Under the pieces are notes generated by a model, which saw only the letters and a program-made list of their open reading frames with translations, was not told where the DNA came from and ran no database searches. Of a stretch of 64,000 bases of DNA, positions 34 through 18,494 are shown piece by piece. Numbering within the stretch: the stretch's first letter is position 1; each line of letters begins with the position of its first letter. A program made the position numbers and the translations under genes. This DNA comes from a phage, in sequence record PZ495249.1; one strand, 5' to 3'.

Positions 34-219
34 TTAAATATGATTGATAGCCACTACCTGATCAGGCTTAACACGGTTTTTTAGATTGTCAATCAAAATC
101 TCACCGTTATCAATCCCCAGGATCACGCCATTAACCATAAAGCCCCATTGATCACGATAACGCGCTTTTAAGCGCCCTCCGCGCTGTTCTATGGCCTTTT
201 CTATTTGTTCCAATGTCAT
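34..219 (-). CDS. hypothetical early protein (61 aa)
   Basis: track ORF; GGAGG upstream of ATG; part of leftward small-gene array. Confidence 0.55.
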   Translation of the reverse strand: MTLEQIEKAIEQRGGRLKARYRDQWGFMVNGVILGIDNGEILIDNLKNRVKPDQVVAINHI

Positions 220-284
220 TGGATAACCTCCGGTTAAAACTCGTTAGAAAGCGAAAGAGGCGCTATTCTGCGCCCCTTCTCTTA

Positions 285-422
285 TCACTCAATCCAGCCC
301 CGTTTCTCGGTGCGGTCGCGCTTTGTTTTGTTGCGCTTATCCCCTTTGCGGCTGGTATCTTCGTTCCATGCCTTGCGCGGTTTACCGTTACCCATTTTTT
401 CTACGTTGTTGGAACCATTCAT
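285..422 (-). CDS. small Lys/Arg-rich protein (45 aa)
   Basis: hand-called ORF below track cut-off; GAGGG RBS; leader hairpin upstream; frame checked against neighbouring track ORFs. Confidence 0.3.
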   Translation of the reverse strand: MNGSNNVEKMGNGKPRKAWNEDTSRKGDKRNKTKRDRTEKRGWIE

Positions 423-452
423 TTTTAAACCCTCGTTTTATTTTCAATGTTA

Positions 453-1312: not shown

Positions 1313-1379
1313 AATATTTTCTCTTCTGTTTAAGCGGGTGCATAATCCTATATTATGCTATTCCCGCCCCTTGATGAAT

Positions 1380-1408: not shown

Positions 1409-1421
1409 CTGGTTATTGAAA

Positions 1422-1643: not shown

Positions 1644-1644
1644 T

Positions 1645-1839: not shown

Positions 1840-1883
1840 TTTAACCTCGTTAGATTGTTTGGTTTCTCTCTTCAATGGCTGCA

Positions 1884-1911
1884 TTATCTAACAGCCATTA
1901 CAGAAAGTCAA
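1884..1911 (-). promoter_or_regulatory. sigma70-like promoter TTGACT-N16-GATAAT
   Basis: upstream of gene 1645..1839; approximate coordinates. Confidence 0.45.
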
Positions 1912-2060
1912 CCGATCTCTTCTAATTTTTCTGTTCGCCAGGTATATTTGGTTAGCTTGCTTAACATCGCGCAACCTTCCGCATGAGTTAACGGCGAATC
2001 ATTCATGATCACTTTAACGCCTGTTTTATTGTTGACTACTACAACATTGTACTTTCTCAT
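1908..2060 (-). CDS. small hypothetical protein (50 aa)
   Basis: hand-called ORF; AGGAG 9 nt upstream of ATG; own promoter at about 2097..2124. Confidence 0.3.
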   Translation of the reverse strand: MRKYNVVVVNNKTGVKVIMNDSPLTHAEGCAMLSKLTKYTWRTEKLEEIG

Positions 2061-2096
2061 TGTTCCGGCTCCTGGTTTCTCTTCTCTATAGCGCCC

Positions 2097-2124
2097 ATTA
2101 TAAGGCGCTATAACGAAAAGTCAA
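2097..2124 (-). promoter_or_regulatory. sigma70-like promoter TTGACT-N16-TATAAT
   Basis: upstream of ORF 1908..2060; approximate coordinates. Confidence 0.5.
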
Positions 2125-2126
2125 CT

Positions 2127-2291: not shown

Positions 2292-2313
2292 GATGTTTCT
2301 CTCTCTTTGGTGT

Positions 2314-2335
2314 GGCGCGGGAACCATTCCCGCCC
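2314..2335 (-). promoter_or_regulatory. conserved leader stem-loop GGCGCGGGAACCATTCCCGCC
   Basis: between promoter and RBS; same sequence recurs at 3572 and 4492. Confidence 0.5.
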
Positions 2336-2346
2336 CTCTGATAAAC

Positions 2347-2375
2347 AATTTACGCTCTATTTAGTTCACTGTCAA
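2347..2375 (-). promoter_or_regulatory. sigma70-like promoter TTGACA-N17-TAAATT
   Basis: upstream of leader hairpin and gene 2127..2291; approximate coordinates. Confidence 0.5.
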
Positions 2376-2392
2376 GCTAATTTTGCGATAAT

Positions 2393-2506
2393 TTAAAAGC
2401 GGGTTACGATGAAATAGACAAGTGCTATCACCGCCCACGATGGAACCGCCAGGATCAGAGCATTAATAATGCCAGTGGTGAAGCAATTTGCTTTTTTGAT
2501 TAACAT
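2393..2506 (-). CDS. small hydrophobic protein (37 aa)
   Basis: hand-called ORF; single hydrophobic helix; promoter at about 2553..2582. Confidence 0.3.
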   Translation of the reverse strand: MLIKKANCFTTGIINALILAVPSWAVIALVYFIVTRF

Positions 2507-2552
2507 AGTGCATCCTCTTTGGTGTCGGCATCATTGCCGCCCTATGTGATGA

Positions 2553-2582
2553 ATTATGCGCCCCTCCTGGGCGCTTGTCAAT
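2553..2582 (-). promoter_or_regulatory. sigma70-like promoter TTGACA-N18-CATAAT
   Basis: upstream of ORF 2393..2506; approximate coordinates. Confidence 0.45.
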
Positions 2583-2585
2583 CCC

Positions 2586-3134
2586 TTATTTAAAATAATT
2601 TCGTAGGGCTTGCGCTGCCTCTTCCGGTGTCGGATGATACGGCGTGATCGCGTCCTCTTCCAGGACTACCGGATCAAGCTCCGGCTCTTCCTCCGGCGCG
2701 TTCTCTTCCTCCAGGAGTACAGATCCCGCCAGCTTATCGATCTTGCGCTGCGCCTTGTCTGCTTTCACGTCCAGGACTCGCAAGGCGCTACGATAAAGGC
2801 TCTCAGGCATCTTTCCCGCCTCATATGCTTTTGTAAGCGCTGCCACCTTGCCAGGGTACTCTAACAGCGTTTTAAACGCCGGATCTACCATCAGCAGGGG
2901 ATCGCCTTTCGCGTCATCTGCCGGATCTGCCGCCCCTGCAATGTCTGCCTGTCCATTTGGTAGCCAGCCTGGAACCGTGGCGCGGATCGCCGTGTTCCCG
3001 TTGTTACGCGCTACGCGCTGCCCCACTTGCTCGCCACTGTAGCCGCTTGCGTCATCCAGGAGATCAGGCGGGATCACCCTCCAATCATCCTCGTCATGCT
3101 TAACCCACGATTGAATAACATGCTCACGCCCCAT
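2586..3134 (-). CDS. hypothetical early protein (182 aa)
   Basis: track ORF; GAGGGG upstream of ATG. Confidence 0.6.
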   Translation of the reverse strand: MGREHVIQSWVKHDEDDWRVIPPDLLDDASGYSGEQVGQRVARNNGNTAIRATVPGWLPNGQADIAGAADPADDAKGDPLLMVDPAFKTLLEYPGKVAALTKAYEAGKMPESLYRSALRVLDVKADKAQRKIDKLAGSVLLEEENAPEEEPELDPVVLEEDAITPYHPTPEEAAQALRNYFK

Positions 3135-3137
3135 AGG

Positions 3138-3398
3138 TTAACCCCTCGTTACTAACTCACATACACGGTAAAGGCTCCCCGCATCTTTTGAAGGTAGCCA
3201 CCCGATCCGATACTTCCCGATCTCAACCTTCGTAACGTCCTTTACTTCGGCGTTACGGTGATTAAAGATAGTGTAACCGCCCCCACTCCGCTTGTAAACG
3301 TTTTCTTTAAACGTCATTGCATATCGTGCGAGATCATAGGCTGTTGAATCCATAAAGGCGATAACCTCGCCTTTACAGTTTAGAAACAATGGTTTCAT
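3138..3398 (-). CDS. hypothetical early protein (86 aa)
   Basis: track ORF; GGGGGAA upstream of ATG. Confidence 0.55.
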   Translation of the reverse strand: MKPLFLNCKGEVIAFMDSTAYDLARYAMTFKENVYKRSGGGYTIFNHRNAEVKDVTKVEIGKYRIGWLPSKDAGSLYRVCELVTRG

Positions 3399-3405
3399 TA
3401 CGTTA

Positions 3406-3552
3406 TTATTTCCCCCATCTGGTAAACCCCGCGCCCTGATTAGATTTTAACTCACGTTTCAAACGGGCGCAACGGCTCGCGATAGCGAAACGGGAGGGAG
3501 TTACAACGGTTGATCCGGTGTTGGTGTGGATTTTCATTACACGTTGTTTCAT
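3406..3552 (-). CDS. small basic protein (48 aa)
   Basis: hand-called ORF just downstream of promoter and leader hairpin; stop abuts start of next gene. Confidence 0.3.
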   Translation of the reverse strand: MKQRVMKIHTNTGSTVVTPSRFAIASRCARLKRELKSNQGAGFTRWGK

Positions 3553-3571
3553 AATCTTTCACCTTTGAGGA

Positions 3572-3593
3572 GGCGCGGGAACCATTCCCGCCC
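3572..3593 (-). promoter_or_regulatory. conserved leader stem-loop GGCGCGGGAACCATTCCCGCC
   Basis: between promoter 3603..3631 and ORF 3406..3552. Confidence 0.5.
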
Positions 3594-3602
3594 TTTGAGA
3601 TA

Positions 3603-3631
3603 ATATTAGCCCCATTCCTGGGACTTGGCAA
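3603..3631 (-). promoter_or_regulatory. sigma70-like promoter TTGCCA-N17-TAATAT
   Basis: upstream of leader hairpin 3572..3593; approximate coordinates. Confidence 0.45.
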
Positions 3632-3871
3632 CTATCTTACCGTAATTTTTTCACCTTTTACGATAATGTAAGTATGGCCTGAATTACTGTATTGATCGAC
3701 ATAGACACGGCGATCACGCCCCTGGAAATTAATTTTCCATTGAGTAGGTATTTTTGTACCATAGCCGGATCGTGTCTTAGAAAGTCCCGCCGTTTGCCAC
3801 CACAAAGGCGCTTCAATCGTCTCTACTTCCGCTAACAGTGAACCATCTTTTGCAATCAATAAAGTTTCCAT
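3632..3871 (-). CDS. hypothetical early protein (79 aa)
   Basis: track ORF 3632..3934 trimmed to internal Met with GAGAG..AAGAAG RBS; hairpin 3905..3924 lies upstream. Confidence 0.5.
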   Translation of the reverse strand: METLLIAKDGSLLAEVETIEAPLWWQTAGLSKTRSGYGTKIPTQWKINFQGRDRRVYVDQYSNSGHTYIIVKGEKITVR

Positions 3872-3904
3872 CTTCTTACTCTCTTCTGTTGGTGTAGGGG
3901 AATG

Positions 3905-3924
3905 ATAGCCCCTTTCGGGGCTAT
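3905..3924 (-). promoter_or_regulatory. intercistronic hairpin ATAGCCCC-TTTC-GGGGCTAT
   Basis: 8-bp GC-rich stem right after stop of gene 3938..4471; no clear U-run. Confidence 0.4.
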
Positions 3925-3937
3925 GGTCAAGCACTAT

Positions 3938-4471
3938 TTAGACGTTTTCAACAATACTTTTCAAGACGTCTACACCTTCCAGGAGATCACGCGCTGCACT
4001 GATCGCGGCTTCAATTGCATCCTCTTCGCCGCCGTGTTCTTTCCAGATCTCTTCTGCCGTGTCTAAGAGTGATCCTTCATCATCGTAGGAATAATCAAAA
4101 CCGCAACATACTACTTCACCGTCTAACAGGGTATGAGATCCGGCGGTAGCGTCAACCGTGAAATAGTAGTCATTGGCGGTAATGTCACGCGCTAATTGAC
4201 GCTGTAAACTTTCGTAAGCTTCACGGGACGGGTTAGCACGTCCTGCTTTCGCATAGTCTGCCGTGAGTTCTGCCAGCGTATACTGCTGAGGGATAGCATA
4301 TTTAAAGCTATTGCGATCTGCATCAGGGTTAGTAATAGTTACGCCGCCCTCGTGCGTGTCTGTCATTTTCCACTGATCCCCGAACTGGTCAAACGTGTAA
4401 GCACATACAACGTTAACAGTGAAATCAATGTTGTTACGGGAAAAGTTGAAAGTTTCAATGATATCAGACAT
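3938..4471 (-). CDS. hypothetical early protein (177 aa)
   Basis: track ORF; consensus promoter TTGACA-N16-TATAAT and leader hairpin upstream. Confidence 0.6.
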   Translation of the reverse strand: MSDIIETFNFSRNNIDFTVNVVCAYTFDQFGDQWKMTDTHEGGVTITNPDADRNSFKYAIPQQYTLAELTADYAKAGRANPSREAYESLQRQLARDITANDYYFTVDATAGSHTLLDGEVVCCGFDYSYDDEGSLLDTAEEIWKEHGGEEDAIEAAISAARDLLEGVDVLKSIVENV

Positions 4472-4491
4472 TTGGTTATCTCTCTTTAATT

Positions 4492-4512
4492 TGGCGCGGG
4501 AAACATTCCCGC
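4492..4512 (-). promoter_or_regulatory. conserved leader stem-loop GGCGCGGGAAACATTCCCGCC
   Basis: between consensus promoter and RBS of gene 3938..4471; no U-run, so not a terminator. Confidence 0.5.
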
Positions 4513-4525
4513 CGCCTATGAAGTG

Positions 4526-4553
4526 AATTATACGTTACTGGGTGAATCTGTCA
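4526..4553 (-). promoter_or_regulatory. sigma70 consensus promoter TTGACA-N16-TATAAT
   Basis: perfect -35 and -10 hexamers; upstream of leader hairpin and gene 3938..4471. Confidence 0.6.
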
Positions 4554-4562
4554 AGCGTTTAT

Positions 4563-4766
4563 TTACTCAATATCTAAAACTTTTTTCAGGCGGTTGATCT
4601 TCGCTTCGCGTTGCTCATGAGTGATCACGCACATTTCAACCAATGAATCAAGGAAAGCGGATACAATGCAATAGCCGTTAAAATCGTTTTCCTCTTCTTT
4701 CTCACAAAAGCCGTTCACGATCACTTTGATTGATTCAGTCGTCACTACTACATGTAATGTTGCCAT
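4563..4766 (-). CDS. hypothetical early protein (67 aa)
   Basis: track ORF; AGGAAG RBS; promoter at about 4818..4846. Confidence 0.5.
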   Translation of the reverse strand: MATLHVVVTTESIKVIVNGFCEKEEENDFNGYCIVSAFLDSLVEMCVITHEQREAKINRLKKVLDIE

Positions 4767-4817
4767 TTTCTTTTCTTCCTGTTATGCGGTGCGCCTCTCG
4801 CCTCGCCTTGTGTAGTA

Positions 4818-4846
4818 ATATTAGATCGCCGCCCCTATGCTGTCAA
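4818..4846 (-). promoter_or_regulatory. sigma70-like promoter TTGACA-N17-TAATAT
   Basis: upstream of gene 4563..4766; approximate coordinates. Confidence 0.5.
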
Positions 4847-4887
4847 CTACTACCATAAAATTTTTTATATATATTTCCCTGGTGCTT

Positions 4888-5067
4888 GAAAAATAAAAAA
4901 TTTTTTCACCTGGGAGTTCCCACAAAATTTTTTCGATTAGGTGGATCTCGTTTCGGAAATTTTCCTCTTACGTAAAACTCGTTACAAAAATTTTTCGACC
5001 TGGTAAAATCCGTTGGCGGAAAAAATTGAGATCCTAAAACTCAAATCAGCAAAAAATTTTCCTTGCG
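4888..5067. repeat. phased A-tract/T-tract array (AAAA(A)TTTT(T)C about every 30-35 bp, six copies)
   Basis: direct reading of the sequence; candidate intrinsically bent DNA. Confidence 0.5.
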
Positions 5068-5133
5068 CTTTCCTTGGTGTGGTGTATAGTGGTTATCAAG
5101 CCGCCACGGTGGAGGCACAAAGAGGAAATAACC

Positions 5134-5244
5134 ATGAAAGTTTACAGTGTATATGATGACGAAATTTGCAACCATTGCTATCACCCTAAGCGCTTAAAGT
5201 GGTGTTTTATCTGTAAGCAAGAGATGCAAAAACAGGGTAAATAG
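5134..5244 (+). CDS. micro-ORF with CxxC..CxxC zinc-ribbon pattern (36 aa)
   Basis: hand-called ORF; AGAGGA RBS; lone rightward ORF inside the non-coding control region. Confidence 0.3.
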   Translation: MKVYSVYDDEICNHCYHPKRLKWCFICKQEMQKQGK

Positions 5245-5246
5245 TG

Positions 5247-5276
5247 TTGACACGCCCCAGGGAACGGGGCTATAAT
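5247..5276 (+). promoter_or_regulatory. sigma70 consensus promoter TTGACA-N18-TATAAT (rightward)
   Basis: perfect hexamers; no obvious CDS downstream; fires into the repeat region. Confidence 0.5.
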
Positions 5277-5494
5277 CACCACATACAGAAGAGGACACGC
5301 CACCCCACGGCGTAAAGGCGGGGCTAACATACCAGGGCGCTGGTTGCAAGGTGGATCGCCGGTAGCTCGCCTCAAAAAAGTTTTGTAAAGATTGAATAAA
5401 GTGCTTGCGTCCTGGGTTGGTTGTGTTATTATGTATACATGGACAGGGGAACGGGGCTGGCGAGACAATCACCGGAGCTGCCCGTCATTCTGGA

Positions 5495-5595
5495 AATGCG
5501 AATGAGTCTCTTTTCGGTTTGTAGATGAGAATGATTCTCATTCAACTTTATAAACGAGAATGATTATCACTTGCAAATGAGAATGCTTATCATAC
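5495..5595. repeat. four operator-like near-palindromes GAGAATG(A/C)TT(C/A)TCA
   Basis: four spaced copies of an imperfect inverted repeat in about 100 bp. Confidence 0.5.
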
Positions 5596-5613
5596 TCATC
5601 CGGCAAATTTTCG

Positions 5614-5820
5614 AGAATTTTAAATTTTGCTTTTGGAAAAATGCAGATCGAAAAGTTAAAAAACTTTTAATAATTGGGGAATTTTTTGAAAATTTTAAAT
5701 TTTGGTTTTGGATTTTTCTGTGGTAAGATGCAGAAAAGTTTTAAATAATTCAGGGAAATTTTAAATTTTGCTTTTCAATATTTATTGAGCAACCTGGAGA
5801 AAAGTTTTAAATAGTTTGAG
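5614..5820. repeat. three tandem AT-rich direct repeats of about 70 bp
   Basis: GARAATTTTAAATTTTGSTTTTGG plus CAGAAAAGTTTTAAATA recur three times in the same order. Confidence 0.55.
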
Positions 5821-6049
5821 AGTGATTTTCAAAGTTTGTTTCCATATTGTTCGGACTGAGATGGAAATAGATTATCAAGTTATTACAACAACTTACAAGA
5901 TTGCTTAGAGTTTGATTTAAATATGGTGTTAAGAAGTTCAAACTGTGTCTATGAATTTACTGGTATGTTGGAGGTGAGGCTCCGAAATATTGAACCCCAC
6001 ACCCCTTATTCTAAAAACGAAAATTTTTAAAATATCAGATAATATCAGG

Positions 6050-6667
6050 TTAGCCTAACATCGGCAAGAAAAGTCGGTCGCCACTTAGAATTAGTTCTCT
6101 TTGAATTAATCCATAGATGACAAACCCGTGACCACACTTCTTATCCTCAGCATGAATCACATCGTAATAATCCATACCTAACTCCTGGTAGTGATAACCG
6201 TCGAAGTCTAACAGTGCAATTTTCTCACCATCATTAACCCGTTTCCATAAGTCTTTGAATGTATCTGTTTGCACCACTGCACGGGCGTACATTGGGAAGT
6301 ACAGGTTTCGACGGGCAGTGATGTAATCCAGTTTCTTGCCATCCCAGACACTATACAGAGGCTTTCTGCCTTTACCCATAGGGTAGCGTTCTGCTCTCCA
6401 GTTAGCCCAACCTGCTCGCGCCCATGTGTAATACGCTTCGGTTGGATCACCGTTCTCATCTACGTGCTCTTCGTACACTTTACTAAATTGCCAGGCGTTC
6501 TCCATATTCTTGGCTACAATGCCACCATACATAGGTATATCGCGCAGGTAGAACGGGCTAAGCTGCTGTCCGTATCCTTCTTTATCACGGCTGGTAGTGT
6601 TGACCACCTTAAACCCTTCCGGTACTTTGTCCCGCATACCAACCACGATTAGATTATCAAACTTCAT
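6050..6667 (-). CDS. hypothetical protein (205 aa)
   Basis: track ORF 6050..6739 trimmed to internal Met with GGAG-N6-ATG. Confidence 0.6.
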   Translation of the reverse strand: MKFDNLIVVGMRDKVPEGFKVVNTTSRDKEGYGQQLSPFYLRDIPMYGGIVAKNMENAWQFSKVYEEHVDENGDPTEAYYTWARAGWANWRAERYPMGKGRKPLYSVWDGKKLDYITARRNLYFPMYARAVVQTDTFKDLWKRVNDGEKIALLDFDGYHYQELGMDYYDVIHAEDKKCGHGFVIYGLIQRELILSGDRLFLPMLG

Positions 6668-6881
6668 TCTTATCTCCGTAGTTGTCGTGGTAGTATTGGA
6701 TGGCTTCTTCGAGATCCATTCCGCACATACCTGTTTCATTGATACTCACGGTGTATTTATTCTGATACCGTTGGATAACATTCCCTTCCTCGTCATGGCG
6801 AGTCCACCAACCTCCACCTGGGAGGATAGTAACCACATTGTTAAGGATAAAATCAAACATCTGTTCTTTAGTCAGTTTCAT
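6657..6881 (-). CDS. hypothetical protein (74 aa)
   Basis: track ORF 6657..6914 trimmed to Met with GGAGAAA RBS. Confidence 0.45.
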   Translation of the reverse strand: MKLTKEQMFDFILNNVVTILPGGGWWTRHDEEGNVIQRYQNKYTVSINETGMCGMDLEEAIQYYHDNYGDKNEV

Positions 6882-7098
6882 CAGGTTTCTCCGTAATCTC
6901 TTCGATAAAGGCAATCAGTGCTTGCCCTGCTTCATCAGCATTCTTGAGAGAGCGTTCGTAATTACTTGTCACTAAATCACGGCTTGCAGGATCAATCTGT
7001 GTGGGACGTAAATGATCCCACAGTGCCACCTGCCCTTCGTAGACACAGCAATTTTCAATCAGTGCTAATAGTTTCTGTTTTTCTGCTTGCGTAATCAT
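6868..7098 (-). CDS. hypothetical protein (76 aa)
   Basis: track ORF 6868..7143 trimmed to Met with GGAGGA RBS just after hairpin 7107..7134. Confidence 0.45.
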   Translation of the reverse strand: MITQAEKQKLLALIENCCVYEGQVALWDHLRPTQIDPASRDLVTSNYERSLKNADEAGQALIAFIEEITEKPDETD

Positions 7099-10595: not shown

Positions 10596-11055
10596 TTACA
10601 GCTTTCAATTTACGCAGGATGTTTTCCACTTCTGACATAGTTTTAGCTTCTTCAAGCTGGCTTGTCAAGCGAGTAATGATGCCTTTAATTACATCAGGAT
10701 TCGTCTTTGGCTCACGGCGGCGCAGAGCACTCATCTCTTCATAGTGCTTGTTCTCTACTTCCGTCACTTCGTTACGCCAATCCACTTCATCCATTGCGCC
10801 TTTACAGACGCAAGTGAAACCTGTCACATCGTAGTTGCCATAACGTGCAATGTTGGGTTGCAGAGGTAAGCCCTCGTTCCCGCAGTAGGCACACACTGGA
10901 CGACCATAAGTGCTGATCATTTTCGTGGGTTCAGCGTCACACTCACTATTCCAACTGATACGGTAGCTGGAACCATTATCACCATGTGAGGAACCAACAA
11001 AACCACGGCTAAAGCGGTCGTATGAACGTTCATCTGCGTAGTCAGGAATAGCCAT
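10585..11055 (-). CDS. hypothetical Cys-containing protein (156 aa)
   Basis: track ORF. Confidence 0.55.
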   Translation of the reverse strand: MAIPDYADERSYDRFSRGFVGSSHGDNGSSYRISWNSECDAEPTKMISTYGRPVCAYCGNEGLPLQPNIARYGNYDVTGFTCVCKGAMDEVDWRNEVTEVENKHYEEMSALRRREPKTNPDVIKGIITRLTSQLEEAKTMSEVENILRKLKAVNEE

Positions 11056-11068
11056 TTGAATTCTCCTC

Positions 11069-11362
11069 TTAGAATGCCAACACTTTCTTCGTTTCGGTAG
11101 GTGCAGTATCGAACAAGTCGATCACAAAGTCAAGCATTTTTATTAACTCGTTTGTGACATTAAACTCTTTATACGAACGGAGTTGAGTTTTCTCTTCTCC
11201 CACCTGGTGCAACACCTTAATCGGTGCATCCAGACGAATGTTACGATCTTCGTCCTCCTCGAAAGAAGCTAACCATTTCTCGTTAACACCGTGGATAGCA
11301 ATGATGATGCCATACCCTTCGGCTGTTTCTGAGATGTTCTTGGTAGATGCAATGATTTTCAT
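11069..11362 (-). CDS. hypothetical protein (97 aa), first gene of the leftward unit
   Basis: track ORF; AGAGGAG RBS; promoter at about 11392..11419. Confidence 0.55.
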   Translation of the reverse strand: MKIIASTKNISETAEGYGIIIAIHGVNEKWLASFEEDEDRNIRLDAPIKVLHQVGEEKTQLRSYKEFNVTNELIKMLDFVIDLFDTAPTETKKVLAF

Positions 11363-11391
11363 TTATTACTCCTCTTGTTTCAATACCGCCC

Positions 11392-11419
11392 ATCTTACTT
11401 GAAAAATATTTCATGTCAA
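11392..11419 (-). promoter_or_regulatory. leftward promoter TTGACA-N16-TAAGAT
   Basis: divergent pair with rightward promoter; -35 hexamers about 3 nt apart. Confidence 0.5.
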
Positions 11420-11422
11420 GTG

Positions 11423-11450
11423 TTGACTTTCATTTCTGGTTTGATAAGAT
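11423..11450 (+). promoter_or_regulatory. rightward promoter TTGACT-N16-TAAGAT
   Basis: 30 nt upstream of RBS of gene 11481..11969; strand-switch point. Confidence 0.5.
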
Positions 11451-11480
11451 TGTTGCATACAAAACGAGAGGAGACACCTA

Positions 11481-11969
11481 ATGTACAATCTGACCTGGAC
11501 TCAAGCCCAAGAAGCAATGCGTGAAGGTAAACGTGTTAAGAACAGCAACTTCACGGACGAAGAGTTCTTCTATATGGAAGATGGAAAGATCTGGGATGAG
11601 CAGGGCTACCCAATGGCTGGCTGGTATCGTGGCTACGATTGGCAGGAGGCAGGTTGGATGATCCTGGAAGACAACTTCAAACCTTTTGAAGAAGATATCT
11701 CAGAATCTGCCTGGAAAGAAGAAGAGATCCGTCTTACTGGTGCAGAACGCCAGAAGATGAAAGCTGTTATGCTTGGTGAAAACTATTCTGCACTGGAGGA
11801 GAAAGTTCTTGCACTTTACGCAGGGCAAGGTTATGATTTGGAAACTATGGATTGCTACGTTGGTATCACTCCACGATCTCCGACCTTACCTCGTGAAAAG
11901 GAGAACTACAACTTCCGTATCACGAAAGGTCGTGGTCATAACAAATTACAGAAGAGGAAAAAGAAATGA
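11481..11969 (+). CDS. hypothetical protein, N-terminus resembling DUF2829 (Tad2-like) fold
   Basis: track ORF; GAGAGGAG RBS; N-terminal W..A.EAMREGKRV...GW...DW pattern; first gene after rightward promoter. Confidence 0.6.
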   Translation: MYNLTWTQAQEAMREGKRVKNSNFTDEEFFYMEDGKIWDEQGYPMAGWYRGYDWQEAGWMILEDNFKPFEEDISESAWKEEEIRLTGAERQKMKAVMLGENYSALEEKVLALYAGQGYDLETMDCYVGITPRSPTLPREKENYNFRITKGRGHNKLQKRKKK

Positions 11970-12073
11970 TAACATTTCTGTTAGGGTTGGGTATCGGAAC
12001 ACTATTAGGATATATAGCTGTTGTTCTTATCGTTGGAGCAATAGCGGTTTTAATTTTAGATCTATTCAGTTAA
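11966..12073 (+). CDS. small hydrophobic protein (35 aa)
   Basis: hand-called ORF; ATGA start/stop overlap with upstream gene; one predicted helix. Confidence 0.3.
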   Translation: MITFLLGLGIGTLLGYIAVVLIVGAIAVLILDLFS

Positions 12074-12082
12074 GGAGCAGAG

Positions 12083-12256
12083 ATGACTAAATACTACCGG
12101 AACAAACATAACGATCTGATCTACTGGGTCCAGGATGATGTTGTGCTGTGTGACGATGATGATATGTGTGATACCATGCCATCAGCTTTCACTTTAGCCG
12201 AATTTGAGGAAGCACTGCTGGATACTTTTGCGTTTGAAGAAGTGATGGATGTATAA
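12083..12256 (+). CDS. small acidic protein (57 aa)
   Basis: hand-called ORF; AAGGAG RBS. Confidence 0.4.
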   Translation: MTKYYRNKHNDLIYWVQDDVVLCDDDDMCDTMPSAFTLAEFEEALLDTFAFEEVMDV

Positions 12257-12420
12257 TGACTATCTATCAAAATCAGTTTCGTGCTGTCATGCGTAAATAC
12301 GTTGGCAACAAGGGTTACGCCTCTACGGATGGTGGAGTCACTTGGTCTGAAAGCGGTACACCGGAAGAACTGATCAAGAAACTTCCATACTACAAAATTG
12401 TGAATAAAGGAGGAGAGTAA
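12256..12420 (+). CDS. small protein (54 aa)
   Basis: hand-called ORF; TAATG overlap with upstream ORF. Confidence 0.4.
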   Translation: MTIYQNQFRAVMRKYVGNKGYASTDGGVTWSESGTPEELIKKLPYYKIVNKGGE

Positions 12421-12421
12421 A

Positions 12422-12829
12422 ATGAAAAAACAATCTATCTTCAATACTGCTGTGGGTGTCCTCACTATCGCCTTAGCTACGGTTAGTCTTATTGGTTGTG
12501 AACAAGCTGCTGACGTTGCAAGCCGTAACATCGCCACCGCTGGCGATAACTTTGAAGTGTTGCGTTCTATTCACTTCATCAACACCCGTACAGATAAAGA
12601 ACTCATGCGTATCGAAGGTTACTGTGCGAAAGACAACAGTAGCACTGATCGTACACTGATCATCACCTGCCGAGATAAGGCCAACGGTTCCGTGAAGAAG
12701 CACTATATGGGGCTGTCTACCGACACCACCTACTTCATTGAACAAGTGGATGGTGCTCAGGTGAGCGTGGATCACACCCGTGTTATCTTTGCTCCACAAA
12801 CTCTGATCCCAAGTCTGGAAGTACGCTAA
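12422..12829 (+). CDS. lipoprotein (lipobox L-I-G-C)
   Basis: track ORF; signal peptide ending in LIGC; AAGGAGGAG RBS. Confidence 0.65.
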   Translation: MKKQSIFNTAVGVLTIALATVSLIGCEQAADVASRNIATAGDNFEVLRSIHFINTRTDKELMRIEGYCAKDNSSTDRTLIITCRDKANGSVKKHYMGLSTDTTYFIEQVDGAQVSVDHTRVIFAPQTLIPSLEVR

Positions 12830-13176
12830 TGGCTGAACTCACTGTACGTGAAAAGGTGATGAAAGCCGAACTGCAAAACATTGCCTGTGATCTGGGGTTA
12901 GACCACGAGACAGCGGGATTCTTGGACATTGTGAATGCAATCTTTGCATTACAACATCCGTGGATTGATGTTGATGGTATTGACAACATGCCATTTGGTA
13001 ACTGGATTGTCATTATGGCTGATGGTAAACATGGCGTTTGCCAGGTAGTACAAGGTGGTAGCGGTAAGTTTGCAGTGATCAATGGTCACTTCTACTTTGA
13101 CCTGGAACCAGTGGTAGCATACATGCCTATGCCTGAATATATCCCGAAAGGAGGTGTTGAATGTCCTTCTTCTTAG
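12829..13176 (+). CDS. hypothetical protein (115 aa)
   Basis: track ORF; TAATG overlap with upstream gene. Confidence 0.55.
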   Translation: MAELTVREKVMKAELQNIACDLGLDHETAGFLDIVNAIFALQHPWIDVDGIDNMPFGNWIVIMADGKHGVCQVVQGGSGKFAVINGHFYFDLEPVVAYMPMPEYIPKGGVECPSS

Positions 13177-13298
13177 GTATGAACTTGATGTTCATGGTGG
13201 CGTGTAACATTGCCGTTTGGTTGTTCAATAGTCCTGGCTTGGGGCTTGTTTTCTTAGGTTGTCAGGTTGTTTGCTTGTTCTTATCATTCTTGGAGTAG
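13161..13298 (+). CDS. small hydrophobic protein (45 aa)
   Basis: hand-called ORF; GGAGGT RBS; overlaps end of previous gene in another frame. Confidence 0.3.
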   Translation: MSFFLGMNLMFMVACNIAVWLFNSPGLGLVFLGCQVVCLFLSFLE

Positions 13299-13306
13299 GA
13301 GGTTTT

Positions 13307-13738
13307 ATGACAGATATCATTCGCGCTAAATTCGAGGAACTTCACCCGTACAAAGAGGGTAGCAACAAGAGCCTCTACGAATCGCTGTACGCGATCTTCA
13401 AGGAAGGATGGGAAAACGGTAAGTCTTCTCGTGAAAACACGCCAGAGAGCGATACAGGCCGTCGTTATGGCTTCTGCATCCCTGTTATGGAGTTTGAACG
13501 AGGTTGGGGTGCTAAACACGATGGCTACATGGTTGGTTTTACCATCGAAGATATTAAAGCCCGTCAGGAGATTTTTGAAAGAACCAATTCTGACGATTAC
13601 GGCTTGTACTATGCTCGCCCTAATGAATTTACTCCTGTGGAGTTGACAGAAGAGGCAATTGAAGCTTTAATGTTAGCTACCGACAGACACTGTACGATCT
13701 GGTTTGATTATGCAGAACAATTTGCAAAAGGAGAATAA
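13307..13738 (+). CDS. hypothetical protein (143 aa)
   Basis: track ORF 13259..13738 trimmed to Met with AGGAGG RBS. Confidence 0.6.
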   Translation: MTDIIRAKFEELHPYKEGSNKSLYESLYAIFKEGWENGKSSRENTPESDTGRRYGFCIPVMEFERGWGAKHDGYMVGFTIEDIKARQEIFERTNSDDYGLYYARPNEFTPVELTEEAIEALMLATDRHCTIWFDYAEQFAKGE

Positions 13739-13739
13739 C

Positions 13740-14015
13740 ATGCAGAACAACGTCACACCACGCGCTAATATTTCAGATCACATCATCGAAACTGCTGATG
13801 GCAGTTTGTTGTTACTGAAAGATCCTGTTGACTGGAAAGAGGGTGAAACTGTAAGAACAGCATCATCCTCCGTGAAAGGTGTTGACATTCGAGAGTTCTG
13901 TGCTGTATTCTGCAAGGACACAGGCATTCAACAAATTACCTTCGACCAAATGTATCAGATCTGTGAAGTGATGCTGCAAATGGAAGAAGCTGGAAAGGAG
14001 GTATTCCCTAAATGA
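13740..14015 (+). CDS. hypothetical protein (91 aa)
   Basis: track ORF 13704..14015 trimmed to Met with AAAGGAGAA RBS. Confidence 0.55.
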   Translation: MQNNVTPRANISDHIIETADGSLLLLKDPVDWKEGETVRTASSSVKGVDIREFCAVFCKDTGIQQITFDQMYQICEVMLQMEEAGKEVFPK

Positions 14016-14287
14016 GCAAACATCCATACTACCAACTGCTGGCGATGTTACGTAAACAGCGCAACAACATGATCGCAGACTTCCGTCACTTCAAACGGGA
14101 TCGTGTTAACCGTCATTGGATGCCACATAGTGCATTCTCTCATACGGTGACACGCTTCCGTCAGAAGATTAAGGAGATTGACAACCTGATCTTCTACAGT
14201 AAGCTGGCTATCCGTGTATCTCGTGAAACCGGAGTGCAATACCTATACGATCATGAGAACAACCGTATCTACTTTGAACTCCCGTAA
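14012..14287 (+). CDS. hypothetical basic protein (91 aa)
   Basis: track ORF; ATGA overlap. Confidence 0.55.
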   Translation: MSKHPYYQLLAMLRKQRNNMIADFRHFKRDRVNRHWMPHSAFSHTVTRFRQKIKEIDNLIFYSKLAIRVSRETGVQYLYDHENNRIYFELP

Positions 14288-14428
14288 ATAAATGTCACCA
14301 GGGTATTGACTTTCGTTAAAAAGTATGCTACCCTAACCCTGAAAGGTGACGAGCGAAGCGAGTGTGATTTATCTATTCGTTCCTGACACTCGTAGAGTGG
14401 AAGGGACGGATAGCTTAGAGGAGGAAAT

Positions 14429-14695
14429 ATGGATGTAATGACTATGAGATTCATAGTGATCTTCTTGATTATCCTGGTAGGTTTAGTTATTATACCTGCT
14501 GGTTTATGTCTTTGCTGGATGCGTAAGTATGGTGATAATGGTAGATGGTGGATGTTACCTGTATTGTTAGTTTACCTTTACCTATTCTTCAACTATTCTA
14601 ATCTTCTCATGCCTGAGAGATGGACATTGAAGCCAGTGGAAGTGTATCGCTGTGAATGGAAAACTGAATATATACCTAAATACCCTATTGACTAA
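14429..14695 (+). CDS. membrane protein (88 aa)
   Basis: track ORF; GAGGAGGA RBS; two hydrophobic segments. Confidence 0.55.
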   Translation: MDVMTMRFIVIFLIILVGLVIIPAGLCLCWMRKYGDNGRWWMLPVLLVYLYLFFNYSNLLMPERWTLKPVEVYRCEWKTEYIPKYPID

Positions 14696-14714
14696 CTGAT
14701 CAGAGAGGATTACT

Positions 14715-14924
14715 ATGACAATCAGCACAACAAAGTTACCAGCTAACAAGGACAGACCGGATGATCGTCCATACGAAGTTACTGCTTACGATGACATGAT
14801 TCTGATTGAACGTGACAGTAATTTCTTGTATGATTACGAATCTATGGCTCTAACCAAAGAACAAGCCCTGTGTCTCGCTCGATACATCATGGGTAAGTAT
14901 GGAATCAAAAACGAGGAGGTATAA
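14715..14924 (+). CDS. hypothetical protein (69 aa)
   Basis: track ORF; AGAGGA RBS. Confidence 0.5.
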   Translation: MTISTTKLPANKDRPDDRPYEVTAYDDMILIERDSNFLYDYESMALTKEQALCLARYIMGKYGIKNEEV

Positions 14925-14925
14925 C

Positions 14926-15153
14926 ATGCAAATCGAATATCCTGTGTTTCGTCGTAAAGGCGTGAAAGCCAAGTTCAACCTGGATCAGTATGCAGGCTAC
15001 AGTGTGGCTGAATGGGATACTTGTCGTATCCACCTGACGAACGGTAACACCGTTCACACGGCGTGGTCGCCGGAGCACCTGGAACGCGCTATCGAGCGTG
15101 CGGAGAAAGCCGAGATTGAGGCGGAGAACTGCCGTTGGGATCTTGAGGACTGA
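14926..15153 (+). CDS. hypothetical protein (75 aa)
   Basis: track ORF 14899..15153 trimmed to Met with GAGGAGG RBS; terminator follows. Confidence 0.5.
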   Translation: MQIEYPVFRRKGVKAKFNLDQYAGYSVAEWDTCRIHLTNGNTVHTAWSPEHLERAIERAEKAEIEAENCRWDLED

Positions 15154-15158
15154 TAACA

Positions 15159-15183
15159 AAGGGGCGTAAGCCCCTTATTTTAT
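15159..15183 (+). terminator. rho-independent terminator
   Basis: GGGGC-GTAA-GCCCC stem plus T-run. Confidence 0.55.
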
Positions 15184-15193
15184 AGGAGATGTT

Positions 15194-15634
15194 ATGAACC
15201 TGATTGAACTGTTAGGGGGAATTAAATTCCCATCAGATGTTAAATTTGTCAGCCAAGATGAAGATGGTGTGATAAATATGTACCACTCAGATCCTGAGCA
15301 ACGATCTGTCGAGCAATACTGGACATGTAAATTCTTCCTGCAATACTTAGAAGGTGAAGACGGTGAAGATCTCTATCTGCCATTGGCAGATGACTTCCGT
15401 ACTGCACTTCTGACTGTTGTTGATGGTAAAGTGGCAGGTCTTGCTTATGGTTGTGTGAATGCCCCTCCCAAACCAAAAGCTGAGTTCAAAATTCTCTTGT
15501 GTCAGGAAGATTTTGATTATATGATGGATGGCATGGAGGTTGCTGAACTCACGGTAGGCATTGTCAACCAGATCCTGAAAGAGCAGGGTGTAGATATTGT
15601 CTTTGCAGTAGAAGACAGTTCTGACGAAGAATAA
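15194..15634 (+). CDS. acidic hypothetical protein (146 aa)
   Basis: track ORF; TAGGAG RBS. Confidence 0.6.
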   Translation: MNLIELLGGIKFPSDVKFVSQDEDGVINMYHSDPEQRSVEQYWTCKFFLQYLEGEDGEDLYLPLADDFRTALLTVVDGKVAGLAYGCVNAPPKPKAEFKILLCQEDFDYMMDGMEVAELTVGIVNQILKEQGVDIVFAVEDSSDEE

Positions 15635-15651
15635 TTGATAAAGGAGATCCC

Positions 15652-16722
15652 ATGAAAGTAGGCTTAATTTTCGGTAAATTTGCACCACTGACAGCAGGAC
15701 ATGTCAACTTCATCCGTATGGCAGTAGAGTCGGGCATTGATCGTCTGTATTTGTTCCTGTCTTTCGACCAGAAGTTCAACGACACTCAAACTCCGTGGAT
15801 GCAGAAGCGCCTTGGCCTCACACAACGTTTGTGGGATCTCAAGTCTCTTATCGAAGACTCTGGACTCACTCGCAAAGTGATCGTAGACTACGTGGACGAG
15901 TCCAACATTCCTGGCTACCCAGAAGGTGGTAAGGCGTATGCTGAGTTGATTCGTGCTAAGATCCCCGAAGGAGAGGTGTTGACACACGCATTCTCTTCTG
16001 AGCCGGAGTATACTGCCTACTTCTCTGAGTATTTCCCAGAGGTGGAGCATGTTGTGCTGGATGCAGAGCGCAGCGGAGTAGATATTTCTGCTACACGCAT
16101 CCGTACCAACCTGCGGGACAACTTCGAGTATCTTTCCGAGCAAGCTAAACCTCGCTTTGTCAAGCGTGTGGCTATTATCGGTGTAGAAAGCACTGGTAAA
16201 TCCACGATGACCGAGCGTTTAGCTCACCACTACGCAACAACGTCTACGCCTGAGATCGGGCGGGACATTTGCGAAGAGTTATTCTGTGGTAGTGAATTCC
16301 TAATGGATCGTGAAGCGTATCTCAAAGTTGCTATGGCACACCGTATGGAAGAATATATGCACTCCAACGAGGCACACGTTGTCCACATCTCGGACACCAC
16401 CAACTTGATCACGCACTTCTCCGGTATTTGTTCAGGCAAACTGTATCTGAACGACCATATGTTCAGGGCTTTATCTCGTGAAGAAGCTAACACCTTCTAT
16501 GACCTGGTGTTGTTCCTGTCTCCAGAAGTCGAGTGGGTAGAAGATCCTCTGCGACTGCAAAATACGCCACGGAAACGACTTGACACACATAATTTCCTTG
16601 ATATGATGGTGACTGAACATTATGTCGGTCGTGTTCCTGTTGTTCACATCACGGGTACGGACTATGAAGATCGTATCAACCAGGCTATTAAAGCCATTGA
16701 TAAACTTTTAGCGGAGGGTTGA
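15652..16722 (+). CDS. nadR: NadR-like bifunctional NMN adenylyltransferase / ribosylnicotinamide kinase (no HTH domain)
   Basis: N-terminal nucleotidyltransferase motif GKFAPLTAGH; C-terminal P-loop GVESTGKST; AAAGGAG RBS. Confidence 0.8.
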   Translation: MKVGLIFGKFAPLTAGHVNFIRMAVESGIDRLYLFLSFDQKFNDTQTPWMQKRLGLTQRLWDLKSLIEDSGLTRKVIVDYVDESNIPGYPEGGKAYAELIRAKIPEGEVLTHAFSSEPEYTAYFSEYFPEVEHVVLDAERSGVDISATRIRTNLRDNFEYLSEQAKPRFVKRVAIIGVESTGKSTMTERLAHHYATTSTPEIGRDICEELFCGSEFLMDREAYLKVAMAHRMEEYMHSNEAHVVHISDTTNLITHFSGICSGKLYLNDHMFRALSREEANTFYDLVLFLSPEVEWVEDPLRLQNTPRKRLDTHNFLDMMVTEHYVGRVPVVHITGTDYEDRINQAIKAIDKLLAEG

Positions 16723-16724
16723 CA

Positions 16725-16898
16725 ATGTTTGGAAAACGTCTTAAAGTGTTGGCTACAGAACGAGCAGTACCAAAGCTGGAACTGCGTGAATATGAAATCG
16801 TGGTGCGCCACGGCAAAGAATGGATTGTTGACGGGTACGGCGGGTTTGTTCCGGTTAAAGAACTCCACCTTGCTAAGGTGACATTCGAAAGACTCTAA
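16725..16898 (+). CDS. small protein (57 aa)
   Basis: hand-called ORF filling the gap between nadR-like and the next gene. Confidence 0.4.
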   Translation: MFGKRLKVLATERAVPKLELREYEIVVRHGKEWIVDGYGGFVPVKELHLAKVTFERL

Positions 16899-16907
16899 GG
16901 AGGGTTT

Positions 16908-17093
16908 ATGAAAGTTGGAGATGTGTTGCGTTGTACTTACTCCGTGGACAGTGATTTCACGGTAGGAAATCTCTATGAGATCGTGTCTTTTGATAAGGAT
17001 GGTGATCCTATTTTGAGGGATAACGACGATTACACTGGCGGTATCGGTGTTGTCATGAATGGCACTCGTTGGCGTTTCGAGGAGGTTGAATGA
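16908..17093 (+). CDS. small protein (61 aa), tandem paralog A
   Basis: track ORF; shares MK.GD.(L/V)RCT..(S/D)D....G.LY pattern with next gene. Confidence 0.5.
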   Translation: MKVGDVLRCTYSVDSDFTVGNLYEIVSFDKDGDPILRDNDDYTGGIGVVMNGTRWRFEEVE

Positions 17094-17281
17094 AAATCGG
17101 TGATCGTGTAAGATGTACTCGCAGCGATGACTCTGAATTGTATTCGGTGGATACTCTCTATGTGATAGAAGGATTTGGATACGGTGGAATGTTGCTACGT
17201 GATGATAAGGGTGGTCTGGATCGCATTCCTATCCCGATGAAAGGTGCATTCTGGGATTTCGAACCAGTTTTAGAAAACTAA
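17090..17281 (+). CDS. small protein (63 aa), tandem paralog B
   Basis: track ORF; ATGA overlap with paralog A. Confidence 0.5.
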   Translation: MKIGDRVRCTRSDDSELYSVDTLYVIEGFGYGGMLLRDDKGGLDRIPIPMKGAFWDFEPVLEN

Positions 17282-17305
17282 TTTAATCCTAAAGAGGAGA
17301 TGAAC

Positions 17306-17998
17306 ATGAACTTATACGTTAAATCCACCTGGACTGACTTCTACGGCTGGAAACCTTTGGAATATCTTTGGTTGGTTATCTGTACTGCCAGTATCGGTGC
17401 GATCTCTATTGCGATGAACAGTACGCTGGTTGAGTTTATCTCCTCAGTAACAGGGATTGTAGGTGCAATCCTTGTGGCAAAGGGTAAAATTTCAAGCTAC
17501 TGGTGGGGTGTCATTGCTACGGCACTCTACGCATGGATCTCATACAAATACCAACTCTTCGGTGAAGCGATCATGTACACACTCGTGTTCCTCCCGATGC
17601 AGTTCTGGGGTGCAGTGGTGTGGAGTCGAAAGCTGAATGTAAGTGGAGATCGTGCAGATGTTATCAAGAACTACCTGACGACAAAGCAACGCATTTGGGT
17701 GAGCGTCGGTACGCTGGCAGCAATTGGGCTTTATGCCTTGTTCGTAGCCGAACTGAAAGGTAGTATGCCTGGTTTGGATTCTGCAACTGCAATCCTGTCC
17801 ATTCTGGCTACCACACTTATGATGTACCGTTATGCTGAGCAATGGTATGTTTGGGTGTTGGTTAACATCGTGGCAGTGGTCATGTGGATTCAGGCTACAC
17901 TACACCATGAAGGTGGTGGCGCAGCAGTGCTGGCAATGTGGGTAGCATTCCTGCTTAACTCTCTGTTTGGAGTGTACCAATGGCGCAAGCAAAGTTAG
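17306..17998 (+). CDS. pnuC: PnuC-family nicotinamide riboside transporter
   Basis: multi-helix membrane protein with PnuC-like W/Y-rich pattern; AGAGGAG RBS (alternative ATG at 17300). Confidence 0.8.
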   Translation: MNLYVKSTWTDFYGWKPLEYLWLVICTASIGAISIAMNSTLVEFISSVTGIVGAILVAKGKISSYWWGVIATALYAWISYKYQLFGEAIMYTLVFLPMQFWGAVVWSRKLNVSGDRADVIKNYLTTKQRIWVSVGTLAAIGLYALFVAELKGSMPGLDSATAILSILATTLMMYRYAEQWYVWVLVNIVAVVMWIQATLHHEGGGAAVLAMWVAFLLNSLFGVYQWRKQS

Positions 17999-18137
17999 TG
18001 AAATACTCCCTGTACGGGAGAATGGGTTGGGACAGTGAGCCAGTTTGTCTGCACACAAATCTTAGCGCGGTACAAGTGGCTCTTAAAATAGAACATTACC
18101 TCGCCACCTGGCGACATGTTGAAGTGAGGAGAGAATT

Positions 18138-18494
18138 ATGAGTTATCAAGAAGCATTAGAAGCAACAGGTGCGGAAGTGCTGGACTACCAGGAATTTGGT
18201 AGCTATCAGGGCGAATGGTTGGCTCTTGTACGAGTTAATGGTGTTCTCGGTGTAGCTGAGGGTTCCTACGGCTCCTGCTCTGGTTGTGACTCGTTTGAGG
18301 CAGAATTTGGTTGGGGTGATCGTGATGCTGACGACTACCAGGAGCGACTCGCTGATTTCGGCAATGGTTATCTTCCGGCTTGGTCGTTCAATGAATTAAT
18401 CTCTCGCCTGGAGTACCAGGTGGAGGAGTATTCATGGGGTGATTACGAAGAAATGTTGGAGAAAGTTAAGGCTTGGAAAGAAGCCTACGAGTAA
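18138..18494 (+). CDS. acidic hypothetical protein (118 aa)
   Basis: track ORF; GAGGAGAG RBS; strongly Asp/Glu-rich. Confidence 0.6.
   Translation: MSYQEALEATGAEVLDYQEFGSYQGEWLALVRVNGVLGVAEGSYGSCSGCDSFEAEFGWGDRDADDYQERLADFGNGYLPAWSFNELISRLEYQVEEYSWGDYEEMLEKVKAWKEAYE

Follow-up and report, generated by a model that had tools for sequence, protein, structure and literature searches.

We describe a group of very short open reading frames (ORFs) in a phage DNA stretch of 64,000 nt (sequence record PZ495249.1); this whole stretch is referred to as the window. Four focal ORFs of 35, 57, 54 and 45 codons (11966, 12083, 12256 and 13161, respectively) lie among larger genes on the + strand, and five more of 45, 50, 37, 48 and 57 codons are found at 285, 1908, 2393, 3406 and 16725 (Table 1). 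All nine are present as proposed in a sequence-only reading of the window; each begins with ATG, ends in a stop codon and is a multiple of three in length. That reading took them for unlisted micro-ORFs translationally coupled to larger genes; they do fall below the length threshold of its ORF track, while most of them are already annotated in related genomes. We find that the micro-ORFs are very probably real protein-coding genes, the focal four and ORF 16725 being cistrons of one long + strand polycistronic mRNA and the early-block ORFs (those within window positions 1–4600) being driven by promoters and not coupled.

Table 1. Genes and signals of the window considered in the text (SD, Shine–Dalgarno sequence; pN/pS, ratio of nonsynonymous to synonymous changes; E, E-value)
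Feature	Position	Strand	Remarks
Promoter candidate, sigma-70-like	11423..11450	+	TTGACT-16-TAAGAT, TG-extended; consensus scan, pattern match only; divergent intergenic region, ahead of the operon
Upstream gene U, 162 aa	11481..11969	+	last codons hold SD AGAGGA; TGA overlaps T35 start; no Pfam family
T35, 35-aa peptide	11966..12073	+	single hydrophobic helix over nearly its whole length (MITFLLGLGIGTLLGYIAVVLIVGAIAVLILDLFS); start overlaps U stop as ATGA
Cassette 3′ end, stop codon and TAAGGAGCAGAG	12071..12082	+	new SD for the next gene; TAAGGAG kept in 3/3 cassette variants
A57, 57-aa acidic Cys-containing protein	12083..12256	+	9-nt spacer with TAAGGAG before start; divergent ortholog of a syntenic 59-aa ORF
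B54, 54-aa protein	12256..12420	+	single Asp-box motif STDGGVTW; TAATG overlap with A57; phrog_2381, E 1.6e-6
Phage_VG64-family protein, 135 aa	12422..12829	+	PF25682, 143.7 bits; begins 1 nt past the B54 stop; signal peptide of the lipoprotein type, …LIGC
G115, 115-aa gene	12829..13176	+	TAATG overlap with preceding gene; 3′ end carries AAGGAGGTG for T45
T45, 45-aa peptide	13161..13298	+	NSPG turn between two hydrophobic segments; predicted to form a membrane hairpin
Downstream gene, 143 aa	13307..13738	+	starts 8 nt after T45 stop, behind TAGGAGG
57-aa ORF	16725..16898	+	starts 2 nt after nadR-like gene stop; phrog_10388, E 1.4e-18
Extra micro-ORF, 53 aa (outside the list of the sequence-only reading)	17980..18141	+	overlaps pnuC-like gene end by 19 nt; SD −6.8 kcal/mol
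Very basic 45-aa protein, T7 gp1.1 family	285..422	−	PF08200; phrog_2490; pN/pS 0.22–0.29
50-aa ORF	1908..2060	−	own promoter TTGACT-16-TATAAT at 2124..2097
T37, 37-aa single-pass hydrophobic peptide	2393..2506	−	own promoter 2581..2553
48-aa basic ORF	3406..3552	−	promoter 3631..3603; stop 7 nt before next gene's start; phrog_8393, E 9.7e-15

The window has ∼80–83% nucleotide identity to, and shares its gene order with, Klebsiella phages KP2025, FKP3, phi1_175008, KP13-26 and KP13-16, of which FKP3 belongs to the genus Justusliebigvirus. We identify it, by its sequence, as a Stephanstirmvirinae (Justusliebigvirus-like) Klebsiella-type myophage; no tRNA genes were found in the window. Identity at this level leaves sufficient divergence for small frames to be tested as conserved coding sequence. 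Counterparts in relatives were found by local tblastn and then compared codon-wise. The comparison included KP13-16 (L002), KP2025 (L004) and the related contigs L008–L011 and L018–L021; 13 sequences, the window among them, entered the comparison of gene slots. Database searches covered a phage DNA and protein collection of 50,697 records and protein clusters comprising 5.8 billion proteins. A search of the literature for expression data on the Stephanstirmvirinae group found none and yielded general context only.

Conservation of the reading frames in related phages, the check named beforehand in the sequence-only reading, speaks for coding. Eight of the nine ORFs have full-length stop-free counterparts, in one to nine relatives each, with a bias towards synonymous changes, and homologs of the ninth, ORF 1908, occur in 12 phage records. 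For pairs with >65% nucleotide identity pN/pS was 0.00–0.31 (ORFs other than 1908). The exact sequences of six of the nine ORFs are already called as genes in public assemblies; counterparts of 59, 54, 45/39, 45, 37, 48 and 57 aa are annotated as coding sequences in records of Stephanstirmvirinae Klebsiella phages. PHROG families of unknown function were matched by ORFs 12256, 285, 3406 and 16725. The Stephanstirmvirinae Klebsiella phages have the same slots and gene order as the window, and most of the small proteins are 64–100% identical; in contrast, the 35-aa ORF occurs in none of their records, and the 57-aa protein of the window is only 37–39% identical to their 59-aa ORF. We regard the nine micro-ORFs as real, conserved small phage genes, mostly known as hypothetical proteins.

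Could these be chance open frames in non-coding spacers between larger genes? Short ORFs are common, 6.8–16.5% of the composition-matched shuffles of the three hydrophobic ORFs stay open, and two of the nine ORFs have weak SDs. Still, such an explanation is highly unlikely given frames that stay intact in relatives at 55–93% nucleotide identity with a strong third-position bias, family matches, hundreds of homologs and exact cassette boundaries. A three-periodic Markov coding model, trained on the long ORFs of the window, scores ORFs 12083, 12256, 285 and 16725 as typical genes and gives 1908, 2393 and 3406 values intermediate between those of genes and those of shadow ORFs; just 0.4–2% of shadow ORFs reach the scores of these seven.

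The micro-ORFs themselves might be shadows of longer overlapping ORFs in another strand or frame. There are four candidates, 12121..12537 (−, 138 aa), 213..428 (+, 71 aa), 16662..16868 (−, 68 aa) and 11773..12090 (+, 105 aa), all of which exceed the micro-ORFs in length and are open in the window. We consider it extremely improbable that these are the real genes. The extent of the antisense ORF over A57 and B54 shifts in every relative (80, 104 and 153 aa), whereas the sense micro-ORFs stay intact, and substitutions concentrate on the third positions of the sense frames. In the alternative + frame across T35 the differences from L011 fall 5/3/1 on codon positions 1/2/3, the opposite of a coding pattern. 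Of the six frames, the sense frame has the best score in seven ORFs out of nine; in the other two, T35 and T45, it is slightly outscored by one antisense frame. The antisense shadow ORFs were rejected as genes on account of their unstable extents and the third-position bias of the sense frames.

The arrangement of the focal genes is compact. Stop-to-start spacings across 11966–13307 are −4 (ATGA), +9, −1 (TAATG), +1, −1, −16 and +8 nt, with +2 nt at 16725, and the SDs are embedded in the 3′ end of the preceding coding sequence. Among relatives the spacing at conserved junctions is −8 to +9 nt, save for the 16-nt overlap of the window and some larger gaps, at which ORF calls restricted to ATG starts may begin too far downstream. 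The ATGA and TAATG overlaps claimed for the focal ORFs are seen at 11966 (ATGA) and 12256 (TAATG); ORF 12083 has a 9-nt spacer instead, and 13161 a 16-nt overlap. The ribosome-binding sites, described as good, are so for most of the nine ORFs: SD pairing to the 16S tail reaches −12.9 kcal/mol for 13161, −10.0 for 16725 and −8.4 for 12083; most of the others have moderate values, 12256 and 3406 have weak ones, and all nine are within the best 18% of ATGs in the window.

ATGA and TAATG junctions are typical of translationally coupled cistrons in many bacterial and phage operons. The present genes resemble the coupled overlapping cistrons of such operons in their 4-nt and 1-nt stop/start overlaps, their 1–9-nt spacers and the location of SDs inside the upstream gene; they differ from the classical cases in that coupling is deduced here from geometry alone. 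Stop and start codons abut or overlap, as expected of coupled cistrons, for the focal ORFs and 16725 and do not for 285, 1908 and 2393. The coupling proposed for the whole set thus suits the geometry of 11966, 12083, 12256, 13161 and 16725, while 285, 1908 and 2393 appear uncoupled. In kind, these are ordinary small genes of a phage group already known, and their geometry matches classical translational coupling.

A single polycistronic mRNA would carry the focal ORFs and 16725; it may start at the promoter-like site ahead of gene U. Promoter-like sites are not enriched in the region 10800–17400 (16 found versus 12.3 expected). Judging by the stop/start geometry, ribosomes ending one gene most likely re-initiate on the next.

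Several observations weigh against the interpretation of the micro-ORFs as coupled genes. ORFs 11966 and 13161 score poorly in the coding model (9% and 4% of shadow ORFs, respectively, score at least as high), which we attribute to the atypical composition of these two + strand membrane ORFs, to which the model gives no help. The SDs at 12256 and 3406 are weak (−4.1 and −4.3 kcal/mol). For T35 the evidence comes from three variants with 15 variable sites (5/3/7 by codon position), and one pair of variants, L011 versus L018, shows no third-position bias. No micro-ORF had a match in NCBIfam, and no function could be assigned. The AlphaFold model of A57 (predicted local distance difference test score, pLDDT, 75; strands-helix-strand) gave no Foldseek match in the PDB better than E = 1.2, and the predicted structure of B54 is unusable (pLDDT 55). 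Finally, we infer both translation and coupling of the micro-ORFs from the DNA.

The claim that several of the ORFs are hydrophobic is borne out by grand average of hydropathy values of 2.34 (11966), 1.64 (13161) and 1.47 (2393). T35 (one helix) and T45 (a two-helix hairpin) would be membrane peptides, and A57 and B54 small soluble proteins. Arguably, the membrane peptides most likely reside in the host inner membrane, where they would act on host membrane functions or exclude other phages; this guess is prompted by the composition of the peptides and by their position among non-structural genes of unknown function.

T35 occupies an exact 117-nt indel in the alignment with contigs L008, L009 and L010; L008 is 99.4% identical to the window across the 57-codon ORF, yet it lacks the cassette. 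In relatives without T35 the sequence …AAGAAGAA is directly followed by ATGACTAAA, and the start of the 57-codon ORF shares an ATGA with the upstream stop. At that same point the window carries ATGATAACA…TTCAGTTAAGGAGCAGAG, and then ATGACTAAA. The insert thus comprises a start codon, which now uses the upstream SD and the ATGA junction, then the 35 codons with their stop and finally a new, well-spaced TAAGGAG for the displaced gene.

T35 is absent from the five related phage genomes. Searches with the cassette (blastn and tblastn) against the phage records gave no match, and the exact and back-translated patterns gave nothing in viral contigs or in bacterial and archaeal genome contigs. The peptide was found in six metagenome contigs (a back-translated pattern scan yielded one contig and an exhaustive HMMER search one family member); these contigs hold two further variants, 85–94% identical in protein, which fill the same slot (L011, L018–L021). 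The metagenome copies are always at the same upstream junction, with the 54-aa gene directly after. The T35 gene is new to the deposited phage records that we searched, and its combination with the 57-aa gene was seen in the window only. Between carriers the cassette is 87–91% identical in DNA, compared with ∼60% for the 300 nt upstream; this higher conservation suggests either lateral exchange or unusually strong constraint. The pN/pS value of T35 versus L011 is 0.15. T35, T45 and T37 have no paralogs within the window.

The T35 insertion (11966–12082) might act as a regulatory element at the RNA or DNA level (an attenuator or a terminator hairpin, for example), its open frame being incidental. 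A scan for terminator-like structures does detect a hairpin at 12017..12045, followed by GGTTTTAATT, and the L011 variant forms the same local hairpin with changes only of the U-A to U-G type. However, the complete cassette does not stand out in folding stability (z = −1.4, +0.1 and +0.3 for its three variants), the L018 variant folds differently, and G-C pairs make up only 4 of the 11 in the hairpin stem. The insertion places its ATG precisely at the SD and stop of the upstream gene, has an open frame of exactly 35 codons in 3/3 variants and ends in a stop and TAAGGAG. Second codon positions are T in 62% of the T35 codons (40% overall), and none of 200,000 shuffles was both open and equally hydrophobic. 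A purely regulatory element is therefore, in our judgement, an improbable explanation, and we continue to treat T35 as a gene.

A different possibility is that T35 serves as a C-terminal membrane anchor of the 162-aa protein U, attached through −1 frameshifting on G-AAA-AAG just before the stop. The T35 frame is indeed −1 relative to U, and the window reads AGG AAA AAG AAA TGA, a run that resembles the dnaX slip site A-AAA-AAG. On the other hand, the first base of the heptamer is G rather than A, and T35 has its own ATG with good SD spacing. The other T35 carriers read AGG AAG AAG AAA TGA or AGG AAG AAG AGA TGA; because they lack the slippery-like run, the U-T35 fusion was rejected, and we give it very little credence. 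T35 as a separately initiated cistron is the reading we retain.

A moron is an inserted gene that is transcribed independently and flanked by its own promoter and terminator. The T35 insertion does not qualify as one: the 117 nt contain a start codon, an ORF, a stop and an SD, and no promoter-like match was found inside them.

Next to T35, A57 differs from its counterpart in L009 and L010 by 26 nt (5/0/21 by codon position; pN/pS 0.06). It belongs to one cluster with three members among the 5.8 billion proteins and had no tblastn match in the phage collection. A57 is collinear with the 59-aa ORF of the Klebsiella phages, sharing 19 invariant positions with it. This 59-aa ORF in turn resembles the 54-aa Asp-box protein over the full length (BLASTP E 2e-4; profile–profile comparison E 9e-5, 59% probability). 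The likeliest origin of A57/59-aa and B54 would be an old tandem duplication of an Asp-box micro-gene, after which the first copy probably diverged fast and, in the lineage of the window, turned acidic and lost the motif.

B54 has 89–94% protein identity in nine relatives (pN/pS 0.10–0.22), and its homologs occur in 223 phage records across Stephanstirmvirinae, Vequintavirinae and 350-kb jumbo phages. Against the Pfam family PF02012 (BNR/Asp-box), whose proteins usually have several repeats forming a beta-propeller, B54 scores 16.8 bits with one motif, below the cut-off of 27, and is not a member. The 54-aa homolog in KP2025 (L004 13285..13449) is labelled ‘BNR/Asp-box repeat protein’, which overstates the case and is listed here as an annotation problem.

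T45 shows how such a junction can change. The ancestral TAATG junction between G115 and T45 has lost its TAA in the window (GTTTAATG in relatives, GTTGAATG in the window; with more context, GGTGTTTAATG and GGTGTTGAATG, respectively). With the upstream stop lost, G115 runs seven codons longer than in relatives, and the 16-nt overlap with T45 is secondary. T45 itself is 87–91% identical in KP2025 and L008 (pN/pS 0.06–0.08). In L009 and L010, which lack T45, the sequence GGAGGTGTTTAATGACAGAT couples the upstream gene straight to the downstream one, whereas in the window, L008 and KP2025 an ATG, the ORF and TAGGAGGTTTTATGACAGAT are inserted exactly at that start codon, forming a start-codon-to-start-codon indel. 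The junctions AGGAGGTGTTTAATG and AGGAGGTTTTATG make an imperfect direct repeat; AGGAGGT(G)TTT(A)ATG repeats flank the indel. T45 is a cassette of the same kind as T35. Divergent homologs (30–44% identity) fill the same slot in other relatives; N16, Q35, C38, L39 and a C-terminal E are invariant, and a polar turn lies between the hydrophobic segments.

We also considered T45 as a holin or antiholin. Holins lie in a lysis cassette near the endolysin, and those with two transmembrane domains are typically at least 65 aa long; T45 has 45 aa. No endolysin is recognised near T45, since its 115-aa and 143-aa neighbours match no Pfam family; lysis genes were not looked for elsewhere in the window.

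Comparison of the 13 sequences defines three variable slots. The first, before the 54-aa gene, holds nothing, the 57/59-aa gene, the 35-aa gene, or both (window only). The second, after the 54-aa gene, holds the VG64-family lipoprotein-like gene or nothing, the gene being absent from L008 and L011. The third, after the 108/115-aa gene, holds a peptide of the 45-aa family or nothing. The name that two related records give to the VG64-family protein, ‘site-specific recombination directionality factor RDF’, appears to be a mislabelling.

The slots seem to be evolutionarily fluid: units consisting of an ATG, an ORF, a stop, an SD and a spacer would be gained and lost exactly from start codon to start codon, and this manner of gain and loss would preserve the coupling of the neighbouring genes. 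In T4-type phages, promoter/stem-loop (PeSL) cassettes mediate the modular shuffling of small genes (PMC2839356, PMC4122927). The likeness is that small non-essential ORFs of unknown function are acquired, lost or replaced among close relatives at short repeated signals, and the early block of the window has promoter-plus-hairpin units of its own (1908, 2393 and 3406; putative terminators). At 11966–13298, in contrast, the indels are bounded by SD/start-codon junctions within a single operon, not by promoters or terminators. The T35 and T45 cassettes lack the flanking sigma-70-like promoter and stem-loop terminator of a PeSL; a weak hairpin within T35 is the only one there.

A more far-reaching proposal is that the SD/start junctions act as short direct repeats at which micro-genes (ATG, ORF, stop and SD) are inserted or excised, a counterpart of PeSL at the level of translation, and that T35, far better conserved than its flanks and present only in this phage group, is spreading laterally and gives a membrane-level advantage (such as exclusion of competitors or host takeover). 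We regard this as speculative and rather unlikely in its entirety.

The micro-genes do not overturn current understanding. They do illustrate that small phage proteins are systematically under-annotated, since the 54-aa or the 45-aa gene is missing from the annotation of close relatives in GenBank: the 54-aa homolog is unannotated in KP13-16 (L002 2037..2198), and the 45-aa homolog is omitted in KP13-26 and in several metagenome gene calls. The 35-aa gene recurs in metagenomes though it is present in 0/50,697 deposited phage records. The locus would also be a clean natural case of micro-gene gain and loss in a coupled operon with the expression of the neighbours undisturbed, and the three hydrophobic peptides are cheap candidates for screens for toxicity, membrane potential and superinfection exclusion.

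Downstream of the focal region, ORF 16725 has 86–95% amino acid identity in relatives (pN/pS 0.07–0.20). It is flanked by NAD-salvage genes conserved in relatives, a NadR-like gene (356 aa, 15652..16722, +) and a PnuC-like gene (232 aa, 17300..17998, +). Between ORF 16725 and the latter gene lie two + strand ORFs of 61 and 63 aa, 16908..17093 and 17090..17281 (MKVGDVLRCT… and MKIGDRVRCT…), which are apparent tandem paralogs with an ATGA overlap. The extra micro-ORF at 17980..18141 is 91–98% identical in L007 and L009, and its counterpart is annotated in relatives.

The early-block ORFs are organised differently. ORFs 1908 and 2393 follow sigma-70-like promoters of their own and 285 is parted from its neighbour by a hairpin and ∼60 nt, so that these three would be stand-alone cistrons and not coupled ones. 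ORF 3406 likewise follows its own promoter and is counted with the stand-alone early cistrons, though the next gene is only 7 nt away. Sigma-70-like promoters are enriched in the early block (18 found versus 7.8 expected), nearly all of them on the − strand.

ORF 285 scores 28.6 bits against PF08200 (Phage_1_1), above the gathering cut-off of 21, and covers profile positions 1–39 of 40; it is a member of the family. Like bacteriophage T7 gene 1.1 it is small and very basic, but it resides in a 140–150-kb myophage and not in a T7-like podophage. To our knowledge, no function has been established for the T7 gene 1.1 protein family itself. ORF 1908 has a 20-member protein cluster at ≥90% identity; among its homologs in phage records is one that lies between ocr and the RNA polymerase gene, in the early region of a T7-like Kayfunavirus. 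ORF 2393 is 64–78% identical in relatives (pN/pS 0.23–0.45). In two relatives the protein of ORF 3406 is 100% identical and the DNA differs by just three to four synonymous changes; the homolog of this ORF in KP2025 (L004 4582..4728) is labelled ‘portal protein’, which is listed as a further annotation problem.

The − strand promoters of the early block include 3930..3902, 3631..3603, 2581..2553, 2124..2097 and 1911..1883. About half of the early-block promoters have a GC-rich hairpin, within the −35/−10 spacer or spanning the −10 box, and in this they are reminiscent of the PeSL cassettes. A leader motif, GGGCGGGAATGG, is present ∼10–15 nt past the −10 box in three to four of the 11 promoters examined, and a fifth has a looser variant. 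The ATG of GGGCGGGAATGG is the start of a real gene (MVPAPHQ…, ∼2327) or else of a mini upstream ORF (MVPAPPQR*), which ends 7 nt before the ATG of the 48-codon ORF.

Beyond the early block, the AT-rich stretch of ∼2 kb at 4600–6900, in which there are no convincing ORFs, could be an origin or a regulatory region. It contains four copies of a 23-nt unit with a Fur-box-like palindrome (ATGAGAATGATTCTCAT) at 5490–5593, spaced 29/29/23, and three copies of a 61-nt unit at 5615–5816.

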